DNA of 64,000 bases from a phage: sequence record PZ154896.1. One strand, 5' to 3'. The notes beneath the pieces are model-generated. The model was not told the DNA's origin and ran no database searches. It worked only from the letters and a program-made list of their open reading frames with translations. Positions 7,978-47,425 of this stretch are shown piece after piece (positions within the stretch are counted from its first letter, which is position 1; each line of letters starts with the position of its first letter). A program made the translations under genes and the position numbers.

Positions 7978-8394
7978 TTATGCAGCAACCATTTGCTTTT
8001 TAATAGCTTCAGGCAGTGATTCAATATATTCTGGAATTTTAGAAGCAACAATTTCGCCAGCTGCAATTAGCTGTTCGTCGGCATCAACACAGTAGAAATC
8101 TTCCAGACGCTCAGAACCATCTTTATCAAGAACGATTTTTCCGCCGGCTTCAATAGAATCTTTATAGTGCTTACGCATCAGATGAATCCACATATCAGAT
8201 ACATCGTTATCAATAAAACCATAAATCATAAAACGAGTTTCTTGTGGCAAAGATTGGAGTTTTTTAGCACTTGCGTCATCACAATGCAGGACCCATGCTT
8301 TACGAACACGATTATGGTTATGCGGGTTAGCGTCAGTACGGATAGAAGTAACTTTCAGATCAGCAGCAGTGAAACCTTTAGCAGTAGTAAACAT
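7978..8394 (-). CDS. rpbA: RNA polymerase-binding protein RpbA (by position)
   Basis: 138-aa ORF immediately downstream of gene 45, as in T4. Confidence 0.55.
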   Translation of the reverse strand: MFTTAKGFTAADLKVTSIRTDANPHNHNRVRKAWVLHCDDASAKKLQSLPQETRFMIYGFIDNDVSDMWIHLMRKHYKDSIEAGGKIVLDKDGSERLEDFYCVDADEQLIAAGEIVASKIPEYIESLPEAIKKQMVAA

Positions 8395-8406
8395 ATTATT
8401 TCTCTC

Positions 8407-8607
8407 TTATTCGTAGAAGTCGGTAACTGTCCATGCGGAATTGCGATTAGACATTATTTTATTATACTCATCTTTAAAAGCAGATTTGAGCATTTGTTCA
8501 GTAACAATATGTTCTTCACCTGAAAACGTATTGGTCAAAACATATTTTTTAATTTCAGGGACAACGAGAAGATGTTGGCCGGTTGAATACTCCATGTTGT
8601 TCTCCAT
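8407..8607 (-). CDS. hypothetical protein (T4 45.2 position)
   Basis: 66-aa ORF between rpbA and 46. Confidence 0.5.
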   Translation of the reverse strand: MENNMEYSTGQHLLVVPEIKKYVLTNTFSGEEHIVTEQMLKSAFKDEYNKIMSNRNSAWTVTDFYE

Positions 8608-8649: not shown

Positions 8650-10338
8650 TTATGAAACAGTCATTACAGTAAATCGTCCAACTTTGCTCATTTGAAGATG
8701 TTGTCCATAAGCTTGTGGGTCATGGTCTCTGTGACTAATTATAAACACGTTTGCATCGGTTAGAGAGTTAAGAATTGTTGAAATAGCTTTAATACCTTCA
8801 GAATCAGTCGCGGAATCCATGACTTCGTCCATAATTAATGTATTGATTCTAACACCAGAGACCTTTTCAGCAATATCTCGCCATGTAAACAACAATGCGA
8901 TATCGATACGCGCTTTTTCGCCTTGACTAAATGAAGCATAACTGAACTCTTCACGGCCACGTGATTTTATAGATTCATTGAATTCTTCATCAATAGAAAA
9001 CACGTAATCAGCTTCCATGATTTTAAGATAATGGTTAATCTGCTTGTTGAACAGAGGCACATATTTTTTAATGATAGCACCTTTAATACCGGAATCTTTT
9101 AACATATCTGTGATAATACCACGATGGTATTTTTCAAGAACGATATCTGATTTTGTTTTAATGATTTTATCAAGTTCTTTTTGAAGCAAAGCTATCTCAT
9201 CAGCGTGGTCGATAAATTCCGCCGAGGCTTGTTCTATTGCAGCTTTAACTTTCTTAGCTTTATCAATAGTGGCAATCATTGCTTGTTTCTTGGTACGAAT
9301 ATCAGATGCAAGGTCCTGTTTAGTCTTAACATTAGCTCTATATTCGTCCACTAGGACACTCAGATTATCTCTGTGGCATGTAAGTTGCTCGAATGAGTGA
9401 TTACATTCATGAAGCTTATCGGTAATCTTAGTGACAATAGGATCACCCTGGTGCAACTGTGATGCACAAGTAGGACATGTACCACCATCATGATACATCT
9501 TAATAACTTTGTTATACGAGTCAATTTTAGATTTAATCAAGAATGCTTCTTGTCCTATCTTGTTGAATGCCTCAGTAGGGTCTTCGTCAAGAACGATATT
9601 AAGTAGACGCTCATTAGCTTCTTCGATTTCTGCTTTTAATGAACGAGCTTCTTTGGCTAGGTCGTCATACATGTTCTGTAGACGCGCTACGTTATCACCA
9701 GATAATTTCTTTTGACGTTCGATATTCTCGTTATAAATCTTAATTTGTTGGATAATACCATCTTTCTTGGCATCGAGAACTTGACCCTGGGAATTAAGTT
9801 CTCGAACTTGAGACTTATTGATTTTATCCATTTCGGCGAGTGTGCCGACTTCTAAAAGGTCTTCGACAAGTTTTCTACGAGCAGGGGTGCTAAGAGCCAT
9901 GAAAGGGGTATACCCTGCCGTCCCAAGCACAACGATTTGTTTAAAAGACGCGTATGACATTCCGATGCTACGTTCAAATTCTTCTTGGAAGTCACGACTG
10001 CTGGCAGATTCATCAAGACGAACACCGTCAACGGAGATTTCGAAAATATTGGGCTTTTGGCCACGTTTAATGAAGTATTTTTTACCATCGAATTCCATCC
10101 AAAGCTCAACTAAGAGCTCTTTCTTGTTCGTGCTATTAATGATTTGCCCTTTCTTAACATCACGAAATGGTTTACCGAAAAGTCCGAAAGTAATGGCTTC
10201 TAACATCGTAGATTTACCACCACCATTTTTACCTGTGATTAAGGTCTTTTGGACTTTATCTAATTGGATATCGATAAAATTTTGCCCAACAGACATTATA
10301 TTTTTATAACGAACACGATTTAATTTAAATGATTTCAT
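8650..10338 (-). CDS. 46: recombination endonuclease subunit gp46 (Rad50/SbcC-like ATPase)
   Basis: 562 aa; Walker A GKNGGGKST, central coiled coil, CPTC zinc hook, C-terminal signature/Walker B; collinear with T4 gp46. Confidence 0.95.
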   Translation of the reverse strand: MKSFKLNRVRYKNIMSVGQNFIDIQLDKVQKTLITGKNGGGKSTMLEAITFGLFGKPFRDVKKGQIINSTNKKELLVELWMEFDGKKYFIKRGQKPNIFEISVDGVRLDESASSRDFQEEFERSIGMSYASFKQIVVLGTAGYTPFMALSTPARRKLVEDLLEVGTLAEMDKINKSQVRELNSQGQVLDAKKDGIIQQIKIYNENIERQKKLSGDNVARLQNMYDDLAKEARSLKAEIEEANERLLNIVLDEDPTEAFNKIGQEAFLIKSKIDSYNKVIKMYHDGGTCPTCASQLHQGDPIVTKITDKLHECNHSFEQLTCHRDNLSVLVDEYRANVKTKQDLASDIRTKKQAMIATIDKAKKVKAAIEQASAEFIDHADEIALLQKELDKIIKTKSDIVLEKYHRGIITDMLKDSGIKGAIIKKYVPLFNKQINHYLKIMEADYVFSIDEEFNESIKSRGREEFSYASFSQGEKARIDIALLFTWRDIAEKVSGVRINTLIMDEVMDSATDSEGIKAISTILNSLTDANVFIISHRDHDPQAYGQHLQMSKVGRFTVMTVS

Positions 10339-36166: not shown

Positions 36167-36469
36167 TTATTTACCTTTAATTACTTTAGCTGCTTCGATA
36201 GCCGCTTGCTGAAGGTCGTCCATAGACATACCGAATTTAGAAGCAAAGTTATCAATTTTCTTTTCGACCGCATTCAAAGGCTTGGCCTGTTTACCTTCAT
36301 TAGCGCCTGGAAGAGCGAGAATACGCTCTTTGTCAATATAAAGGCTTACAAGTTTCTTACGGTCTTTATCGGACAAATCATGAAATGAATGGGCCTTTTT
36401 ATTTATAGCGGCTTCTAATTTACCTGCGCTCACTCGCGCTTCAGTAATAAATTCTTGATATGTTTTCAT
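36167..36469 (-). CDS. ipII: internal protein II-like
   Basis: 100 aa, N-terminal MKTYQEFITEA capsid-targeting sequence; size matches T4 IPII. Confidence 0.75.
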   Translation of the reverse strand: MKTYQEFITEARVSAGKLEAAINKKAHSFHDLSDKDRKKLVSLYIDKERILALPGANEGKQAKPLNAVEKKIDNFASKFGMSMDDLQQAAIEAAKVIKGK

Positions 36470-37891: not shown

Positions 37892-38173
37892 CTATTTTTC
37901 TGAAGCGCCTGAAATATATTTTTCAAGACGTTGTTTCATCAGCGAGCCGTTCTTAGCGATTTCTTCCGGTTTATCGCACATACGTAACAAGGCTTCAAGC
38001 TTAACGATATCACTGGTGCGCTCAAATTTGCGAGTATCTATCTTACTAGCAAGTTCAGAAATACGTGCTAATAGACTTTCAGCTTCAACCAAAGCTGCAC
38101 CTAGCTTAGTTGCAAATGTGTCAGTAGCTTCGTTAAGAATAGATTCTGATAAAAATTCACTATATGTTTTCAT
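37892..38173 (-). CDS. internal protein (capsid-targeting-sequence-containing)
   Basis: Start set at [10 protein letters not shown] (ATG 38171-38173), ATGA-coupled to lysozyme gene. Confidence 0.6.
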
Positions 38174-38658
38174 ATATACGCTTTCCAAGTTCCTGTTTTA
38201 AATGTTGAGATTACGCGTTTCGCGCGATTAGGTGTCTGACGATACCATTTAGATTGGGCTAGATTTACTGCCGCTTCGTCCCAACGTTTCTGTTGAAGCA
38301 TACGAAGAGAATTAGTAAAACCAGCGACGCCTGCTACACCCATTTGGAAGACCATATTGACCAATGCACATCGACGAACTGCATCTAAAGAATCATATAC
38401 CGGTTTAAGTTTAGCATTACCCAAGATTCCGCGTACGGCTTTATCAACGTCTTCATTAAATAACTTTTCGGCCTCATCAAGGGTAATTGTACCGTTGCAT
38501 TTACGTCCGATCATTCTGTCAAGTTCAGCTTTAGCTACGGCTAAAGACGGGTTCTTTGTTACTAAATGGCCTATGCCAATCGTCCAAAAGCCTTCAGTGT
38601 CTTTGTATAAAGTCAGTCTAAGACCTTCGTCATTACGAAGCATTTCAAATATATTCAT
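38170..38658 (-). CDS. e: lysozyme (endolysin) e
   Basis: About 85% identical to T4 lysozyme from memory ([27 protein letters not shown]); start set at ATG 38656-38658. Confidence 0.95.
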
Positions 38659-38692: not shown

Positions 38693-39166
38693 TTATAGAA
38701 GGGTAGTGAGCACCTTATATAATGATTTGCCCATTACATATTCCCATTGAGAAGGTTTAATTAAAGCGAATGCATCAAATTCAGGAATCTGTCGTCCGTC
38801 TGGGAACGTATGATAGGAATTACAAACACTGTTTCTGAATTGCTCGTGCTCTACAGGGATGGTATATAGGAACAGATGAATATTCTTATTGTCTGAGTAA
38901 TGATGTTCACCTAGGTCTTTCAGGAAGGCAGGGTCATATTGTGTAAACCCAGTTTCTTCTTCGCATTCACGAATAGCTGCTTCAATAGGAGATTCACCGG
39001 GCTCGACACGACCTTTAGGAATATCCCACCGATGAGCTAAAGAACCTTTAGGACGAGAACCAGTTACACGGCCCATGAATAACTCTTTATCTTTTGTCAT
39101 GAAGATAATACCAGCTGATAGCTCTTTCACTTTATTTTTCTTACTCATCATCTCAAATTCCTGCAT
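38693..39166 (-). CDS. nudE: Nudix hydrolase NudE
   Basis: 157 aa; Nudix box GRVEPGESPIEAAIRECEEETG; position matches T4 nudE (e.1). Confidence 0.85.
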   Translation of the reverse strand: MQEFEMMSKKNKVKELSAGIIFMTKDKELFMGRVTGSRPKGSLAHRWDIPKGRVEPGESPIEAAIRECEEETGFTQYDPAFLKDLGEHHYSDNKNIHLFLYTIPVEHEQFRNSVCNSYHTFPDGRQIPEFDAFALIKPSQWEYVMGKSLYKVLTTLL

Positions 39167-39639
39167 TCGGTAATAAAACGTTCAACTTCATTATTCTTGG
39201 CTTTTATCTTGTCTTTATGTTCTTGTAAACTACTTTTAATAAGATTAATAATGATGGCGGCGGTACCGCCGCCAATGATGCCACCAACAACACTTATGAT
39301 ACTAGATGCTAATAAGATAGCAATAATATCAACAAAACCGAAAGAACTCACCTTAGTACTGAAAAACCATATAGACGGTACAAATATAATCCATCCTGTT
39401 ATCCATTGGCACTTATTGAAAAACCTTTCAAGCTCAGCTTGAGTTGTTCGTATTACTTCATCGATAGGTTGATATCCATTAATGTATCTGTTCACGATAA
39501 TACCTGCTGGCTGGTCGATTTTAAATTCTTGGCAAATATTTTTCACTAAGTAGGATGGACATCCTGTCCAATCTACTGAATAGTATGAAATACCTTCATT
39601 GCCATCGTCTATATTAGACCAATATGTTTTGTTAATCAT
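39148..39639 (-). CDS. membrane protein, FIxECR C-terminal family
   Basis: 163 aa; transmembrane helices; ends ...VERFITECRNLR. Confidence 0.55.
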   Translation of the reverse strand: MINKTYWSNIDDGNEGISYYSVDWTGCPSYLVKNICQEFKIDQPAGIIVNRYINGYQPIDEVIRTTQAELERFFNKCQWITGWIIFVPSIWFFSTKVSSFGFVDIIAILLASSIISVVGGIIGGGTAAIIINLIKSSLQEHKDKIKAKNNEVERFITECRNLR

Positions 39640-40325
39640 TACCAGCCTTCCATAGGAAATTCCAGATAAACTTGAGCATTGACACGAATTTCATTGGTAA
39701 TCTTTTTAACTCGGTCTGTATTACGAGATACACGTCCGAACCAACGCCATCCATTACTAATTGCACGAGAACCAGTGTGCCATGTTTGCCAATCAAACTG
39801 AAGAAGAGTACGATCTGGAGCTTCCCATTTCTCTAGTTCACCTTTTTCAATTTTTTCGAGGACTTCTTTGTGCCACTGGCGATAGATAAGTTCGCCATCA
39901 GGAATCTGACTGAACTCTGCAGTTCCTGTTGCAAAATGAGTAGGACACACATCAGCGTTAACAAGACCAAGAATATGTTCAGAATAGTAACGAGGGTTGT
40001 CATAATCAGGTTGTCCTGCAGTAATAAAGTGTTGACCAACTGGAATATCAGGGCGTGGTACGTCATCATGGTGATATCCAGGAATAGCAGGATACCAACC
40101 AGGCATCAGCATGTGAACTCGTGAATCAAATACTACATCCGAGTCTTTCCAATCGTCAGGAAGATTTTGGATAAAGCTACGAGTAATTGGGCCGCCATTA
40201 TCAAAAGCAAAATTCAAATCGCAGTTAAAAAACATAGGCTCGTTTTTAATCTGGTCGTTTTTAATCGCATGAGCAAAACCACCTACTGCACGAGCTTGAC
40301 TATTAAACACTTTAGAACTATTCAT
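39639..40325 (-). CDS. hypothetical protein
   Basis: 228-aa ORF, His/Asp-rich (GYHHDDVP). Confidence 0.5.
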   Translation of the reverse strand: MNSSKVFNSQARAVGGFAHAIKNDQIKNEPMFFNCDLNFAFDNGGPITRSFIQNLPDDWKDSDVVFDSRVHMLMPGWYPAIPGYHHDDVPRPDIPVGQHFITAGQPDYDNPRYYSEHILGLVNADVCPTHFATGTAEFSQIPDGELIYRQWHKEVLEKIEKGELEKWEAPDRTLLQFDWQTWHTGSRAISNGWRWFGRVSRNTDRVKKITNEIRVNAQVYLEFPMEGW

Positions 40326-40326
40326 A

Positions 40327-40632
40327 TTATTTTCCTCGACATTCTTTAATGAAATTTTCTAGATTGGTAGATTCAATAGCTTTTTTACGAGCTTCCGCGT
40401 GTTCTTCTTCAGACAATTTACATTTATAATTGACCCAGACATTATGGTCAAAACTAGTCGTGGCATATAATAACAATGCTCCAACGAATAGCAAAAACGG
40501 TGATAAGAATACAAAACCAGGAACACCATCCATATCGTAAGCCTTTTGTAATACTGCAACAGAAAGGGCTGCGTAAAAAGGTGATGCAAATATTGTTAAA
40601 AGACCAATTCGGTTGGTTTCGCCTAATTTCAT
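40327..40632 (-). CDS. membrane protein, FIxECR C-terminal family
   Basis: 101 aa; two transmembrane helices; ends ...NLENFIKECRGK. Confidence 0.55.
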   Translation of the reverse strand: MKLGETNRIGLLTIFASPFYAALSVAVLQKAYDMDGVPGFVFLSPFLLFVGALLLYATTSFDHNVWVNYKCKLSEEEHAEARKKAIESTNLENFIKECRGK

Positions 40633-40651
40633 ACTATTCTCCTCATGTTTT

Positions 40652-40691
40652 AATAGGACTACTATAACATAGTCCCTATAATTATGTAAAC
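40652..40691 (-). promoter_or_regulatory. early promoter cassette (family A)
   Basis: AATAGGACTAcTATAACATAGTCCCTAT palindrome centred on -10 TATAGT; GTTTACA -35. Confidence 0.5.
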
Positions 40692-40703
40692 AGTTTTGCG
40701 AAA

Positions 40704-41660
40704 TTATTTGAAAGGTTTTACCATATGGAAATTTTGTTTGAAACGTTTGACGTAATCATCATGTCCTAAGCTTTGGTACATACTTACTACTTTGCTGTAG
40801 TTTTCCCAGGCATACTCACGGAACCAACCAGAGGTGATGCTTGTACAGACTTTTTCTAATGCCATCATAAAACTGGCTTCAGGGTTAATTTTAAAGTCAT
40901 TAGGAATCTGAGAACGTTCTAATGCTAGTACACATGATTCTTCGTATACACCGGCCAATTTGACCATTTCTGGTAATGATTCGAACTTCTCACGTGAGGT
41001 CATGACTTCAGAACCGTCTTTCATATAAAATGTATACGCTGGACGGTCTGTTAGTGCAATGGCTTCATGAATAGTATCATGGTCATATGTATAGATATCA
41101 TCTTTAAAGAACGCACTTTTAGAAGTGTCAAGAACCGGGTGAGCATAGTTCAAGGTTTCTTTCTGGCGTTTCAGCATAATTTCAGTAAGTTCATCGTTCA
41201 GTGTAACACCTTTACCACGAAGATACTGAATATGGTTCATAGTCTTTAAAAAGAACGGATTATTTTTCTTGAAACGATGAGACATCTTAATTGCAAGACA
41301 TATCTCAGGAGTTGCCCAGTAAAACCCATTCAAACGGTCTTTAGACAAATGTTTCTTGGCGTATTTTAAAAGGTCATAAGAAGACGTGAAATCTTCAGGA
41401 GTGAGTTCACCGACTAATTCACGGACATTAGTGATTGCCGGAACAATATACGCTTCAAAATGAGTTTCGCGTCCATTATGGAAGCATTTGAAAACTTGGA
41501 CATCAGGGTTATCTTGATGAACATATACACCCATCATTTGATTTTTGAATGTATTCCAAGAACCTTGGTCTGCAATAAAGTCCCAGTCACTATTTTTGAT
41601 AGCGTTAGAATCAATAAGACCATGATAGTGAAGTGCACGAGAACCAATAACTAACATCAT
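40704..41660 (-). CDS. hypothetical protein
   Basis: 318-aa ORF, no motif I can assign. Confidence 0.55.
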   Translation of the reverse strand: MMLVIGSRALHYHGLIDSNAIKNSDWDFIADQGSWNTFKNQMMGVYVHQDNPDVQVFKCFHNGRETHFEAYIVPAITNVRELVGELTPEDFTSSYDLLKYAKKHLSKDRLNGFYWATPEICLAIKMSHRFKKNNPFFLKTMNHIQYLRGKGVTLNDELTEIMLKRQKETLNYAHPVLDTSKSAFFKDDIYTYDHDTIHEAIALTDRPAYTFYMKDGSEVMTSREKFESLPEMVKLAGVYEESCVLALERSQIPNDFKINPEASFMMALEKVCTSITSGWFREYAWENYSKVVSMYQSLGHDDYVKRFKQNFHMVKPFK

Positions 41661-41688
41661 AATATTTTCCTCGGATTAATTCATTAAC

Positions 41689-41928
41689 TTAAATTTCACG
41701 ACATGCGATATCATATTCATCCCAGAGGTCATCGTGTGAAGCCTCTACCAATGGAACGATTGTACCATTTATGTCTTCATTATAAGGGCAAATTGTACAG
41801 TGCGCATCTTCGAATCGAATGCCTTTGTGTTCAGATTTTTTATAACGCATATCGAATATCTTTGCAAACTTTTCACGAGTAATGGTTTTAGCAACCACTT
41901 CGGTTCCAACACTTTCGTAATAAATCAT
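41689..41928 (-). CDS. hypothetical protein
   Basis: 79-aa ORF with Cys/His pairs (HCTICPYNED). Confidence 0.5.
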   Translation of the reverse strand: MIYYESVGTEVVAKTITREKFAKIFDMRYKKSEHKGIRFEDAHCTICPYNEDINGTIVPLVEASHDDLWDEYDIACREI

Positions 41929-41947
41929 TGTGGACTCCGTTTAATTT

Positions 41948-41987
41948 GATAGGACTACTATAACATAGCCCTATCTTGTTGTAAACT
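41948..41987 (-). promoter_or_regulatory. early promoter cassette (family A)
   Basis: GATAGGACTAcTATAACATAGcCCTATC palindrome plus GTTTAC. Confidence 0.5.
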
Positions 41988-41990
41988 GTT

Positions 41991-42188
41991 TTAGCAAGAA
42001 TAACTAGATGATACCCAGCCTTGAACAGTAATACTATTATTTGATACCGAGATCGCGTTCTGGAGATTCAGACCTGCGTTATCTTCAATCCATAATGTAA
42101 CTTCTTCGCGTTCTTCTGTTGCAATTTGGAACAGGTTTTCCAGGGCAGCTACTGCCGTACGTACAGCACAATCTAATTCACGAGACAT
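41991..42188 (-). CDS. small protein, C-terminal W-x-SS-x-x-C family
   Basis: 65 aa; ends ...QGWVSSSYSC. Confidence 0.5.
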   Translation of the reverse strand: MSRELDCAVRTAVAALENLFQIATEEREEVTLWIEDNAGLNLQNAISVSNNSITVQGWVSSSYSC

Positions 42189-42197
42189 ATGATTTCC

Positions 42198-42470
42198 TTA
42201 GCAAGTGTGAGAAGATGCAATCCAACCACCAGTTTCGAGGCTCAGATTGTAGTCGTATTGGTAAACGTCAGCCCATTCAGCATAGCCGTTTTTTGTACAA
42301 CGTTCAAGATCGGCTTTAAGATGTCCGGGTGAATGATAGGTTCCACCCATACCATAAGCTGGACACAAGTCGAATGTTGTGTTTTGTTTATCAGCAATTT
42401 CTTTGGCAGCCTCAATAGCTGCATAGATTTTTGCTACAGCTTCAGCCAGTTCGGTTTGTTCTTTAGACAT
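42198..42470 (-). CDS. small protein, C-terminal W-x-SS-x-x-C family
   Basis: 90 aa; ends ...GGWIASSHTC. Confidence 0.5.
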   Translation of the reverse strand: MSKEQTELAEAVAKIYAAIEAAKEIADKQNTTFDLCPAYGMGGTYHSPGHLKADLERCTKNGYAEWADVYQYDYNLSLETGGWIASSHTC

Positions 42471-42479
42471 AGTGATTCC

Positions 42480-42785
42480 TTAGCACAACGCAGAAGACGA
42501 AACCCAAGCACCTTCAGTAATAACGTAACCATTACCTTCACGCTTAACATCGCCACCATTATTTTCAATTTCATTTTTCATCCACTGGGATACGATTTCA
42601 CCCTTAGGATAATAAGTACGACCGCTACCATAATCACCTACAGAAAATGATACGGCGTATTGGTCTGCGATCTTTGTTGCTTCTTCTTCGATACGTTCAG
42701 CTTGATTCAGAAGTTTATAAATTGCATCTGAAGCGGATTTGGCATCATTAAACTCTGGTACTTTAATTTCAATAATCTTACTCAT
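42480..42785 (-). CDS. small protein, C-terminal W-x-SS-x-x-C family
   Basis: 101 aa; ends ...GAWVSSSALC. Confidence 0.5.
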   Translation of the reverse strand: MSKIIEIKVPEFNDAKSASDAIYKLLNQAERIEEEATKIADQYAVSFSVGDYGSGRTYYPKGEIVSQWMKNEIENNGGDVKREGNGYVITEGAWVSSSALC

Positions 42786-43141
42786 TTTCTACATTCCTTA
42801 ATAAAGTTTTCTATTGTTTCATTTTCACGTCTAGCTAGGAGTTCATTATAACTAATCATTTGAGAAGCGTAAACCTTTTTATTTTTCTTGTTATGGTTTA
42901 TAAAATCGTAGTAAAAATAGACTACAGTACAAAATGATGCGATGGATGCAAAGGCTTGGGTATACCGTAAGTCCTGCCATTGGTCTGTGAATCCACCAGT
43001 GTTCCCTATAAATCCTAACACAACGCCGTCAATAAGAAATCCAACTAATCCAAAGGCAAATCCCATGCCAATACTCATAATAAAAATTAGAATGTTCTCA
43101 CCAAGAGAAGGCCATACGGTTAAGAGTTGAGGCTTTTGCAT
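42782..43141 (-). CDS. membrane protein, FIxECR C-terminal family
   Basis: 119 aa; transmembrane helices; ends ...IENFIKECRK. Confidence 0.55.
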   Translation of the reverse strand: MQKPQLLTVWPSLGENILIFIMSIGMGFAFGLVGFLIDGVVLGFIGNTGGFTDQWQDLRYTQAFASIASFCTVVYFYYDFINHNKKNKKVYASQMISYNELLARRENETIENFIKECRK

Positions 43142-43545
43142 CTTATTTCCTTAACGAATTCCATAGCTTCTTCATATTCATACTTTTTAACAGCTTCATC
43201 ATACTGAGCTTGGGCTTTTGCGCACTGAACTTTCCATTCTCTTAATCGGGCTCTGTGATGACGTCCTTGGTACCAATATCCCACCCAGTTAATAGGCATT
43301 AATAAAAATGGTACAATAAACGACCCGGCTATAATAAGTAAAAACACTGCATCAGACGATATAACTTCACTAGAATCTAAAACAGCTCCTATAATCATAA
43401 AGATTAAAAATGCTAAAGCTAAAATAGGGCCAAATAGTACTTCATTTGGGATTAATTTACGCTTGTATTCGTATGCCCAGGGCTTAATTGGCATGTACAG
43501 GGTTGGCTTTGACATATTCTCTACATTCCATAATAAATTGCTCAA
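43120..43545 (-). CDS. membrane protein, FIxECR-like C-terminus
   Basis: 141 aa; two transmembrane helices; ends ...MEFVKEIRCKSLNS. Confidence 0.5.
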   Translation of the reverse strand: MSNLLWNVENMSKPTLYMPIKPWAYEYKRKLIPNEVLFGPILALAFLIFMIIGAVLDSSEVISSDAVFLLIIAGSFIVPFLLMPINWVGYWYQGRHHRARLREWKVQCAKAQAQYDEAVKKYEYEEAMEFVKEIRCKSLNS

Positions 43546-44101
43546 GGATTAAATTGTTAGTGAAATTAGGACTAACAACCATGGTTTCATAAAGCGCATC
43601 AATAGCACTTAAAGCATCAACTCTTTTAAGCAAAGGCTTGCCTTCATACATAGTTTCAGAATCGACGATTAACGTAAAGTAATATTTTTTATTATCGACT
43701 AGAACTTCAGTATCGATATAAAACATGTTAGACCTTAAGAGCTTATCTCTAAAACCATAATAATCTTCAGAGCGTTCGCTGATATATTCCCATTCAGTGT
43801 TTAAACAACAAACAGACCATGTAGGAGCAACGAAATCAGTGAATCTAATATCATGGTCTGCAACTAGTTTAGCAATAGCTCCGATATCATGAATCATAAT
43901 ACCTGGGGCTAATAAAGATTTTCGGTTATTTGCATATTCAGTTGTCTCATAAGAAGACGACCAGTACCATTTACGTCCAGTTGCAACATATCGTAATGAA
44001 TCAACTAAAGACGTAGGTGGATTTACCTTATTTCGGAACTCTTCGAACATTGAGTCAATATCATTATTTTGGTTTCGCATGTTAACTCCTTTATTATCCA
44101 A
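43484..44101 (-). CDS. hypothetical protein with FIxECR-like C-terminal motif
   Basis: 205 aa; ...LILEQFIMECREYVKANPVHAN; overlaps previous gene by 62 nt. Confidence 0.5.
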   Translation of the reverse strand: MDNKGVNMRNQNNDIDSMFEEFRNKVNPPTSLVDSLRYVATGRKWYWSSSYETTEYANNRKSLLAPGIMIHDIGAIAKLVADHDIRFTDFVAPTWSVCCLNTEWEYISERSEDYYGFRDKLLRSNMFYIDTEVLVDNKKYYFTLIVDSETMYEGKPLLKRVDALSAIDALYETMVVSPNFTNNLILEQFIMECREYVKANPVHAN

Positions 44102-44129
44102 AAGGAGGACCTGAGTCCTCCGTATTATT

Positions 44130-44723
44130 TTATTTCAAAGAGTTAATATATTCTTGTACATCGGCAGAAGTGGTTTCGACACCAGCTGGAGTGCCATTGA
44201 ACGTTTCAACACGAGTCAGAGTGTCTTCGATATCAACCTTAGTCAGTGCAGCGATTTCAATTACATCATCAGCCGTAGAGATACCAAGGGCATTAGCTGC
44301 TCGAGTTTCACGAATGTATTCGAGTTTGATTGCCAGATTCTGACGAGCATCGTCAAGTTCAACCACCTTACGAGCAATTTCAATTCGCATAGCGGCATAC
44401 CCGTCAGCTTTTGTATTAAGTTGTTCGGCAGTTCGACGATACAGAAGACCAAGCTTGGCATGCATGGTAACATCTTGACCTTCAGCCAGGAGCTTACGAA
44501 TTTCACGTTCCTTAGAAGCGGCTTGCTTATTCTTTTCATTAACAAGTTCGCGAATACGTTTTTCTTCATTAATAGATTTAACAGAAGCCGTTTTTAGTTC
44601 TTTGATTTGGGTAATCAACTTATCTGCAGCTGCGTTATACTGTTCTTCGACAGTCAGATTTTTAGCCATAGCAGTACCCAGTTTAGTGCGGATGAATTCA
44701 ACAAGTTTCTTCAGTGTGTTCAT
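44130..44723 (-). CDS. coiled-coil protein (tentatively PspA/IM30-like)
   Basis: Start at ATG 44721-44723 (ORF-track start is TTG); long heptad-rich helices; PspA resemblance is impression only. Confidence 0.5.
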
Positions 44724-45904: not shown

Positions 45905-46531
45905 TTACTTACGAGTTTTTGCATACTGAGCAGCGTCAGCAGCCAAACGACCTGCCTGACGAAGTTTTTCTTTAATCGCATCGTGAAGTGGTTGAGTATA
46001 CTTCAAACCTTCGATAGTCAAATAAAGACGATAAAGGTCTGGGGTATCAAGGTTGTTGATATGTTGGCCATTACGAAGACTGTTGAATTCACGAACGAGT
46101 GAAGATGTATCGGATTCAATATCGCGAACAAGCGAAGATAGTTGTTTATATTTTTTTTCCAGGCTAGAAGTATCAAACTTAAGAGCAGGAGCTTTAGGAG
46201 TTGCTTTTACTTCCGGCTTAGGCTCAGGTTTTGCTATTGCTTTAGGGGTCGCAGGTTTAGGAACGGTAGGAGCAGGTTTTACTTTAGGCGAACCCGATTT
46301 AGCAGAAACACCGCCACTAACAATATCTTTGAACGCTTTAGAAGCTCTGTAATATTCTTTTTGGCTGGAAGTGTCGATACCATACATGGCTTGAACGTTT
46401 TTGAAAAACTCTGTACTAGTTTTTGTACCAGAAATAGCATCGTAAGCAGCTTGCCATTTCTCTTTTGTCATACGTACACCGGCTTCGGTGATTACTTCCG
46501 TTTCGGCTAAAAATTCATTAAAAGTATACAT
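45905..46531 (-). CDS. capsid-targeting-sequence-like protein (internal-protein candidate)
   Basis: 208 aa; N-terminal MYTFNEFLAETE resembles the MKTYQEFIAEA targeting sequence; Pro/Lys/Ala-rich central repeat; late promoter upstream. Confidence 0.55.
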   Translation of the reverse strand: MYTFNEFLAETEVITEAGVRMTKEKWQAAYDAISGTKTSTEFFKNVQAMYGIDTSSQKEYYRASKAFKDIVSGGVSAKSGSPKVKPAPTVPKPATPKAIAKPEPKPEVKATPKAPALKFDTSSLEKKYKQLSSLVRDIESDTSSLVREFNSLRNGQHINNLDTPDLYRLYLTIEGLKYTQPLHDAIKEKLRQAGRLAADAAQYAKTRK

Positions 46532-47270: not shown

Positions 47271-47347
<77 letters not shown>

Positions 47348-47350
47348 GAT

Positions 47351-47425
47351 TGGTGACCCTGGCTGGTTTCGATCCAGCTACCTATCAGTTATGAGCTGAC
47401 AGCTCTCCCATTGAGCTACAGGGCC
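47351..47425 (-). tRNA. tRNA-Met (anticodon CAU; could be Ile2 if lysidine-modified), CCA encoded
   Basis: Manual fold: acceptor GGCCCUG/CAGGGUC, D-stem GCUC/GAGC, anticodon loop CUCAUAA, T-arm GCUGG-AUCGAAA-CCAGC; 3 nt from tRNA-Arg. Confidence 0.8.

Follow-up and report, generated by a model that had tools for sequence, protein, structure and literature searches.

The window analysed here is a stretch of 64,000 nucleotides (nt) of phage DNA (sequence record PZ154896.1), and it is 96-97% identical to Mosigvirus coliphages, i.e. RB69-like T4-type phages. On its minus strand, a cluster of small genes contains five open reading frames (ORFs) that end in variants of one short C-terminal peptide, which is called the tail in the following. 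These ORFs are the homologues of T4 e.2, e.3, e.4 and e.5 and one extra gene (ORF2); the equivalences with T4 rest on the published features of phage ATK48 and on a direct comparison with T4. Although no virulent phage has been studied better than T4, e.2-e.6 are to our knowledge without known function, and they evolve too fast for homology methods. An initial annotation had placed the cluster between nudE and the tRNA genes and had described a family of small membrane proteins that share a C-terminal (E)NFIKECR motif. The placement was correct, and all five ORFs exist with C-termini as described, while the starts of two had to be changed. ORF5 begins at ATG 44080, six nt past AAGGAG, and ORF4 most likely begins at ATG 43515 (MSKPTLY, as in T4 e.4 and in the annotation of phage mogra) and not at TTG 43545. 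The features are listed in Table 1.

Table 1. Features of the e.2-e.6 region (window positions unless a locus is named; SD, Shine-Dalgarno motif; aa, amino acids)
Feature	Position	Strand	Length (aa)	Remarks
ORF1, full-length e.2 homologue	39148..39639	-	163	phrog_2203; tail EVERFITECR (codons 39160-39186)
ORF2	40327..40632	-	101	phrog_9798; weak phrog_2203 match (expectation value (E) 0.002); tail NLENFIKECR (40336-40362)
ORF3, e.3 homologue	42782..43141	-	119	similar to T4 e.3; tail TIENFIKECR (42788-42814)
ORF4, e.4 homologue	43120..43515	-	131	start most likely ATG 43515; degenerate tail EAMEFVKEIR (43141-43167)
ORF5, e.5 homologue	43484..44080	-	198	soluble alpha/beta, no transmembrane segment; tail ILEQFIMECR (43520-43546)
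e.6 homologue	44130..44723	-	197	88% identical to T4 e.6; N-terminal helix and long helical hairpin
nudE (Nudix hydrolase)	38693..39151	-		end gene of the tail-bearing run; SD (AGGA) within the C-R-N codons of ORF1
Hairpin, terminator- or attenuator-like, with T-run	44104..44121	-		between e.6 and e.5, ahead of the AAGGAG SD of e.5
Early-promoter-like site	40661-40690			upstream of ORF2
Early-promoter-like site				upstream of e.6
Gene for 228-aa protein	39639-40325	-	228
Gene for DUF7277+DUF7275 protein	40704-41660	-	318
Second tandem family, gene nearest the 79-aa gene	41991-42188	-	65
Second tandem family, middle gene	42198-42470	-	90
Second tandem family, gene next to e.3	42480-42785	-	101
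Capsid-targeting-type protein	36167-36469	-		probably internal head protein
Capsid-targeting-type protein	37892-38188	-		probably internal head protein; phrog_3499, 'internal head protein'
Capsid-targeting-type protein	45905-46531	-		probably internal head protein
tRNA-Arg and tRNA-Met	47271-47425
Indel site (gene presence/absence)	39148-39151			junction in the window
Indel site (gene presence/absence)	9757-10008			locus L024
Indel site (gene presence/absence)	about 9150-9530			locus L013 versus locus L019

The C-termini read …ERFITECRNLR in ORF1, …ENFIKECRGK in ORF2, …ENFIKECRK in ORF3, …EFVKEIRCKSLNS in ORF4 and …EQFIMECREYVKANPVHAN in ORF5, each followed by the stop codon; STNLENFIKECRGK may serve as an example of the tail peptide. 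The stop of ORF1 overlaps the nudE start. In ORF4, the start codon of e.3 lies inside the tail and the Cys is shifted by two residues, and in ORF5 another 11 residues come after the tail, with codons that overlap the e.4 start. A search of the 64 kb in all six frames gave the pattern F[IV].ECR four times, each time at one of these C-termini. The pattern F[IV].E[CI]R was present within the last 20 residues of 5 of the 114 ORFs of the window, compared with 0.002 expected from 2000 residue shuffles. A position matrix of 10 columns, trained exclusively on the tails of other phages, ranked the five ORFs first to fifth (ORF2 27.8, ORF3 26.1, ORF1 25.6, ORF5 19.8 and ORF4 17.5 bits), while the sixth match reached 5.9 bits. 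The string ELERFFNKCQ inside ORF1 was considered as a fossil of a gene fusion and was rejected, as it scored at noise level (5.9 bits) and was not conserved in the family alignment.

Across all six frames of the complete T4 genome, the pattern [FYLMW][IVLM].[ED]CR was found three times, namely in e.5, in e.3 and at the C-terminus of a remnant of e.2. The T4 tails are EFVIDCRKIK in e.3, KFVKESRCKSQS in e.4, KFVKECREYV… in e.5, and NNFITECRKLK in the remnant just upstream of nudE. In the T4 reference (NC_000866, about 67490-67960), e.2 is truncated to 102 amino acids, while T2/T6-type relatives have an e.2 of 162 amino acids. Relative to these, T4 has a -1 indel in a run of A and, some 70 nt further on, a +1 indel, such that the tail-coding end (…NNFITECRKLK) is now an open frame next to nudE that carries no annotation. 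These indels represent either a real lesion of the laboratory strain or an old sequencing error.

Loci for comparison were gathered from IMG/VR, metagenomes and GenBank phages by anchoring on e.6 or nudE. They yielded 46 tails across 12 lineages, in proteins of only about 25-50% identity, and the consensus of 41 non-redundant tails was [LIFV]-[EN]-x-F-[IV]-x-x-C-[RK]. Three to six consecutive tail genes were present downstream of e.6 in Mosigvirus, Tequatrovirus, a third group of E. coli phages, Kanagawavirus PEi20, Jiaodavirus KPV15, Karamvirus AS6 (six genes), Tegunavirus fHe-Yen9-01 and several metagenomic relatives; ORF2 was seen, among the loci examined, only in Mosigvirus relatives. In Biquartavirus (Aeromonas) and Pseudotevenvirus (Cronobacter, Citrobacter), the tail was found only on the e.5-like gene that adjoins e.6, for example as EKFIHSCKK, 25 residues from the stop, in Pseudotevenvirus. 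Thus, matrix, shuffles and recurrence across phages all showed that the motif is conserved far beyond chance, and more strongly than could be seen when it was first noticed. The two reservations attached to it, that the motif might not be conserved or that the ORFs might not be expressed, both proved unfounded, as the T4 orthologues e.2-e.6 have been detected as early RNA and as proteins (omics supplement, PMC9697503).

A codon-specific scan of IMG/VR for FIxECRK returned 58 matches, which is close to a rough prior estimate of the number of chance matches. Four of them end no more than two residues before a stop codon and have an ORF that is open for at least 75 residues upstream. These four C-termini belong to three T4-type e-cluster genes and to one protein of 80 amino acids, and a further e-cluster match was cut by the edge of its locus. 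The 80-amino-acid protein (IMGVR_UViG_3300031162_001159, positions 8313-8555, C-terminus …AAKYFIEECRKS) is encoded by a phage that is not T4-like, beside a DNA polymerase III alpha-like gene and with an ATGA overlap with the next gene. This single case is compatible with chance. Literature searches with motif strings, gene names and accession numbers did not retrieve a description of the motif. The conserved tail common to the T4 ORFans e.2-e.5 is genuine and apparently not previously described.

The tail is encoded at gene junctions, and one explanation is that it is merely the in-frame shadow of the downstream initiation region, i.e. of an A/U-rich stretch, an SD motif and a spacer that are conserved at the RNA level. 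In all five cases in the window, the distance from the Arg codon to the next ATG is -1 to 10 nt and the SD motif is inside the tail codons, either as AAGGA in K-E or as AGGA or GAGGA in C-R-N and R-G. In ORF3, for example, AAGGA in the K-E codons is the SD motif of the next gene, which starts in an ATGA stop/start overlap. Counted from the Phe of the tail, K at +2 was present in 20 of 35 tails with the next ATG at a distance of no more than 12 nt and in 4 of 20 with a larger distance, and the respective values for E at +3 were 16 of 35 and 3 of 20. Because K-E is enriched near the next ATG, these two residues of the originally proposed motif are largely the AAGGA of the following gene read in frame, and the part that stood is the core F-[IV]-x-x-C-R. 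The E at +3 is also not conserved outside three genera.

The behavior of the core residues was different. Among 44 distinct DNA versions of the tail, all synonymous codons were used (TTT 26 and TTC 14 for Phe; TGT 26 and TGC 18 for Cys; AGA 13, AGG 8, CGA 6, CGT 10 and CGC 4 for Arg), and this was also true for Ile. The distance from the Phe codon to the start of the SD motif was 7-9, 15-18 or 20-49 nt, and the SD motif thus had no fixed register. Because all synonymous codons are used and the SD motif of the next gene is found at varying offsets, selection acts on the peptide. In addition, F, I, C and R were kept when the next start codon was 20-77 nt away (C in 18 of 20 and R in 19 of 20 tails), and also when the tail was 25 residues from the stop. 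No other gene junction of T4 gives the peptide, and at the five junctions of the window no RNA structure beyond that of shuffled controls was found (z-scores of -0.9 to +1.6). A pure SD shadow explains only K-E and R-K/R-G and was largely refuted as the sole cause; conservation at the RNA level is thus quite unlikely to underlie the motif.

The strength of the selection was evident within the individual families. In the e.2 family (15 sequences, mean identity of 36%), the only three invariant columns of the alignment are all in the motif. The four core positions were 88-97% identical, compared with 25-36% elsewhere, and even in the most divergent e.5 group the values were 88% versus 25%. Loss of the Cys occurred mainly in e.4-type tails, in which a start codon sits inside the motif. 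These results showed that the tail is maintained by purifying selection at the amino acid level while the bodies of the proteins diverge to 25-50% identity. The tail sequence is also dual-coding, with the K-E or R-K/R-G codons often doubling as the SD motif of the next gene, and it is thus a clear example of a peptide motif that overlaps a ribosome-binding site.

Comparison of close relatives revealed precise presence or absence of whole genes at repeats of 8-16 nt that span SD motif, start and stop (Table 1). The e.4 gene is precisely absent in four relatives, and the resulting junction, AAAGAGGTTCAAAATG|GAACGGCC, consists of the left half of the e.5/e.4 and the right half of the e.4/e.3 initiation region. 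A gene of 78 amino acids, which is not in the window, lies between e.2 and nudE in relatives and is flanked there by GAGATGA.GAGTA repeats over the stop/start overlap. Gene gain and loss by recombination at junction microhomologies is thereby demonstrated. Because the tail is encoded at these junctions, cassettes that recombine between short repeats spanning SD motif and start codon would offer a route by which unrelated ORFs could acquire the same tail. That new ORFs received the tail by this route, which would illustrate how a short peptide module can pass from gene to gene, is what we infer from the indels.

The same exchange could have left the tail as a historical relic, if duplication or cassette insertion copied the 3' end of e.5 onto new upstream ORFs and the copies have no present function. 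The documented cassette indels are in line with this, as are the 16-17 identical nt shared by some junctions within one genome, e.g. e.5/e.4 in T4, and the tail on e.5-like genes in the most distant phages, which suggests e.5 as the ancestral source. However, a relic would be expected to decay, whereas the core residues are the most conserved ones across genera, with synonymous turnover, and the strong homogenization within genomes that gene conversion would produce was not seen. We therefore assign the relic explanation a low probability.

Recombination at repeated junction elements has precedents in T4-type phages. PeSL cassettes, which consist of an intergenic sigma-70-type promoter and a stem-loop, mediate shuffling in T4-type hyperplastic regions (PMC2839356, PMC4122927). 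As at the junctions described here, repeated elements that end in the SD motif and start codon of the downstream gene serve as recombination sites for ORFan cassettes. In contrast to PeSLs, the repeated element of the window is coding and selected as a peptide, the junctions overlap, and it contains neither a hairpin nor, except upstream of ORF2, a promoter; an intergenic promoter and stem-loop ahead of SD motif and start codon was not found.

Whether the tail is carried by one protein family or by several was examined by profile-profile alignment. With the tails included, hhalign gave probabilities of 95% for e.3-e.4, 90% for e.2-e.3 and 81% for e.3-ORF2. When the tails were trimmed, e.3-e.4 remained related over the full length (83%, E 9e-6), whereas e.2-e.3 and e.3-ORF2 dropped to noise; the e.5 variants were related to each other with and without the tail. 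After trimming, e.2, ORF2 and e.5 matched e.3/e.4 with probabilities of no more than 2%, and nothing detectable was common to them but the tail. Judged from these alignments and from an N-terminal (Y/L)-P-S-K-P motif that they also have in common, e.3 and e.4 are true paralogues. The idea of a single paralogue family had to be abandoned: because similarity was lost on trimming except for e.3-e.4 and the e.5 variants, and because e.5 is soluble, the tail is a module on at least four different bodies. Through this constant feature, ORFans with at least four unrelated bodies are joined into one functional group, to which e.6 belongs by position.

Hydropathy analysis supported the transmembrane helices that had been noted in four of the five ORFs, with two segments each in ORF2 and ORF4, two or possibly three in ORF3, one or two in ORF1 and none in ORF5. 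For e.5, neither a signal peptide nor a transmembrane segment was found. In four of the five, though not in ORF5, predicted transmembrane segment(s) are followed by a tail, which in ORF1 is preceded by an N-terminal soluble domain, hydrophobic segment(s) and a K-rich linker, and in ORF2 by two transmembrane segments and a charged linker of 40 residues. In ORF1-4, K/R-rich segments follow the last transmembrane segment, and a charged linker separates the tails from the membrane by 20-35 residues. By the positive-inside rule, the tails are therefore predicted to be cytoplasmic, in agreement with the initial annotation. The hydrophobic tail positions -3, 0, +1 and +4 (i, i+3, i+4, i+7) are spaced such that they would line one side of a short amphipathic helix. 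In an AlphaFold2 model of ORF5 (mean predicted local distance difference test score, pLDDT, of 61.9), the tail is within the last predicted helix (177-192).

A C-terminal, amphipathic peptide on early and possibly toxic membrane proteins could also be a degradation or turnover signal, or a helix that lies on the membrane surface. Yet 1-25 variable residues follow the tail, and it is therefore not a degron that is recognized by its free carboxylate. A helix of only 9-10 residues that is rich in acidic residues would bind poorly to anionic membranes, and a generic membrane helix would not be expected to have an invariant Cys-Arg. Taken together, we regard both variants as unlikely.

The tail was kept at the amino acid level across many related phages, and thus it most likely docks otherwise unrelated proteins onto one partner. 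Conservation, maintenance at the protein level and the predicted cytoplasmic location make a shared partner, as had been suggested initially, a reasonable reading of the sequences. According to this docking proposal, the tail would be a docking or assembly peptide at the cytoplasmic face of the inner membrane, and the products of the operon would bind one common partner, or each other, via the tail. The first candidate is e.6, a conserved helical-hairpin protein present in 1110 phage records. In every complete locus examined, a tail-bearing e.5-like gene directly follows e.6, and in the Aeromonas phages and Pseudotevenvirus, in which the pair lies beside nrd genes and not beside nudE, both genes are still adjacent. 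Apart from e.6, no gene accompanies the tail-bearing genes constantly, and e.6 was therefore placed first, although a host protein is equally possible as the partner. We give docking onto a common partner, with e.6 as the first candidate, an even chance of being correct. The tail offers an experimental handle, as the peptide can serve as bait in pull-downs and has three residues that can be mutated.

Several points weigh against docking. The overlapping ribosome-binding site accounts for the K-E part of the originally proposed motif, and the Cys is missing from e.4-type tails. The partner is a candidate chosen by adjacency, and the fold matches of the e.6 model are non-specific helical bundles. 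The low confidence of the e.5 model makes a free tail helix indistinguishable from one that is packed onto its own domain. At the variable positions, the identity of tails was 0.173 within and 0.152 between genomes, and 444 of 5000 permutations reached this difference; because the likeness within genomes is marginal, there is no clear signal of co-evolution with one shared partner. Concerted evolution of the tails of a genome, by gene conversion or by co-evolution with one partner, was likewise dismissed as weak (444 and 243 of 5000 permutations).

A more specific version of the docking proposal is that the tail is an operon-specific assembly code, with which each protein encoded downstream of e.6 would plug into an e.6 scaffold at the inner membrane. 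The e.6 hairpin was compared with PspA/IM30/ESCRT-III or BAR-type scaffolds. If e.6 indeed formed a scaffold of BAR, ESCRT-III or PspA shape, the phage would make a modular membrane complex, and its set of subunits would be re-shuffled between phages via cassette exchange at the dual-coding junctions. This version is speculative and rather improbable.

Short C-terminal docking tails are known from other proteins, e.g. the conserved C-terminal peptide of FtsZ and the tip of SSB. Like these, the tail is a short, conserved and partly helical end of a flexible or charged linker and the only strongly conserved part of the region. However, the sequences are unrelated, and here one and the same tail is present on several different proteins encoded by a single operon.

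A portable tag of T4 phages is the capsid-targeting sequence of the internal proteins IPI, IPII and IPIII. This sequence stands at the N-terminus, serves packaging into the prohead and is cleaved off after L/I-x-E by the gp21 protease. Both peptides comprise about 10 residues, are found on otherwise unrelated T4 proteins and are encoded within a hyperplastic region, at one end of a gene, and the tail could be related to the targeting sequence (MKTYQEFIAEA) and bind the prohead core or be cleaved by gp21. The protein encoded at 36167-36469 begins with MKTYQEFITEAR, which resembles the tail NFITECR by eye, the tail contains I-x-E, and genes for internal proteins flank the region. However, the EFIxE likeness is superficial. 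Among 50,263 T4 positions, the tail matrix ranked ipII 28th (3.9 bits) and ipIII 468th (-4.7 bits), compared with 12-19 bits for e.4 and e.5, so that the resemblance was not significant and this kinship was rejected. Furthermore, the tail is at the opposite terminus, four of its carriers are predicted integral membrane proteins, the Cys-Arg is invariant, and many lineages have no E at +3. A relationship to capsid targeting is thus very improbable.

The initial annotation had also offered superinfection exclusion as a possible function. Like T4 Imm and Sp, the tail genes encode small, early, envelope-targeted proteins of T4-type phages. However, nothing links them to exclusion; matches to Imm, Sp or defence and exclusion families were not found in Pfam, PHROG, NCBIfam or PADLOC, and no motif is shared with Imm or Sp. 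For the five ORFs and e.6, Pfam, PHROG, NCBIfam, PADLOC and PDB sequences gave nothing informative, and the PHROG labels are 'unknown function' or 'membrane protein'. A search for homologous proteins of e.3 and e.5 returned only near-identical clusters, and phmmer of e.5 against 1.84 billion representative proteins gave three matches, all of them T4-type e.5. The eight best PDB matches of the e.5 model in Foldseek were all small alarmone synthetases (RelP/SAS; E 0.03-0.3, TM-score about 0.18); because these E values are not significant, the matches are a lead only.

The minus-strand order of the genes is e.6, e.5, e.4, e.3, three small genes of a second tandem family, a gene for a protein of 79 amino acids, the gene for the DUF7275/DUF7277 protein, ORF2, the gene for the 228-amino-acid protein, ORF1, nudE and lysozyme e. 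A terminator is annotated in phage ATK48 at the spot that corresponds to the hairpin between e.6 and e.5. The DUF7275/DUF7277 protein and the 228-amino-acid protein are both conserved, their genes are interleaved with the tail genes, and neither is in T4. The C-terminus of the 228-amino-acid protein (…NEIRVNAQVYLEFPMEGW) is nearly invariant across genera. Three proteins that flank the cluster have N-termini of the internal-protein capsid-targeting type and are probably internal head proteins.

The second tandem family follows e.3 directly and encodes small acidic proteins (phrog_4882 and phrog_899). Their C-termini are exactly G-x-W-[VI]-[SA]-S-S-x-x-C followed by the stop codon, and thus another conserved C-terminal Cys motif exists in the same cluster. 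The copy number of this family is three to five in related phages and zero in T4.

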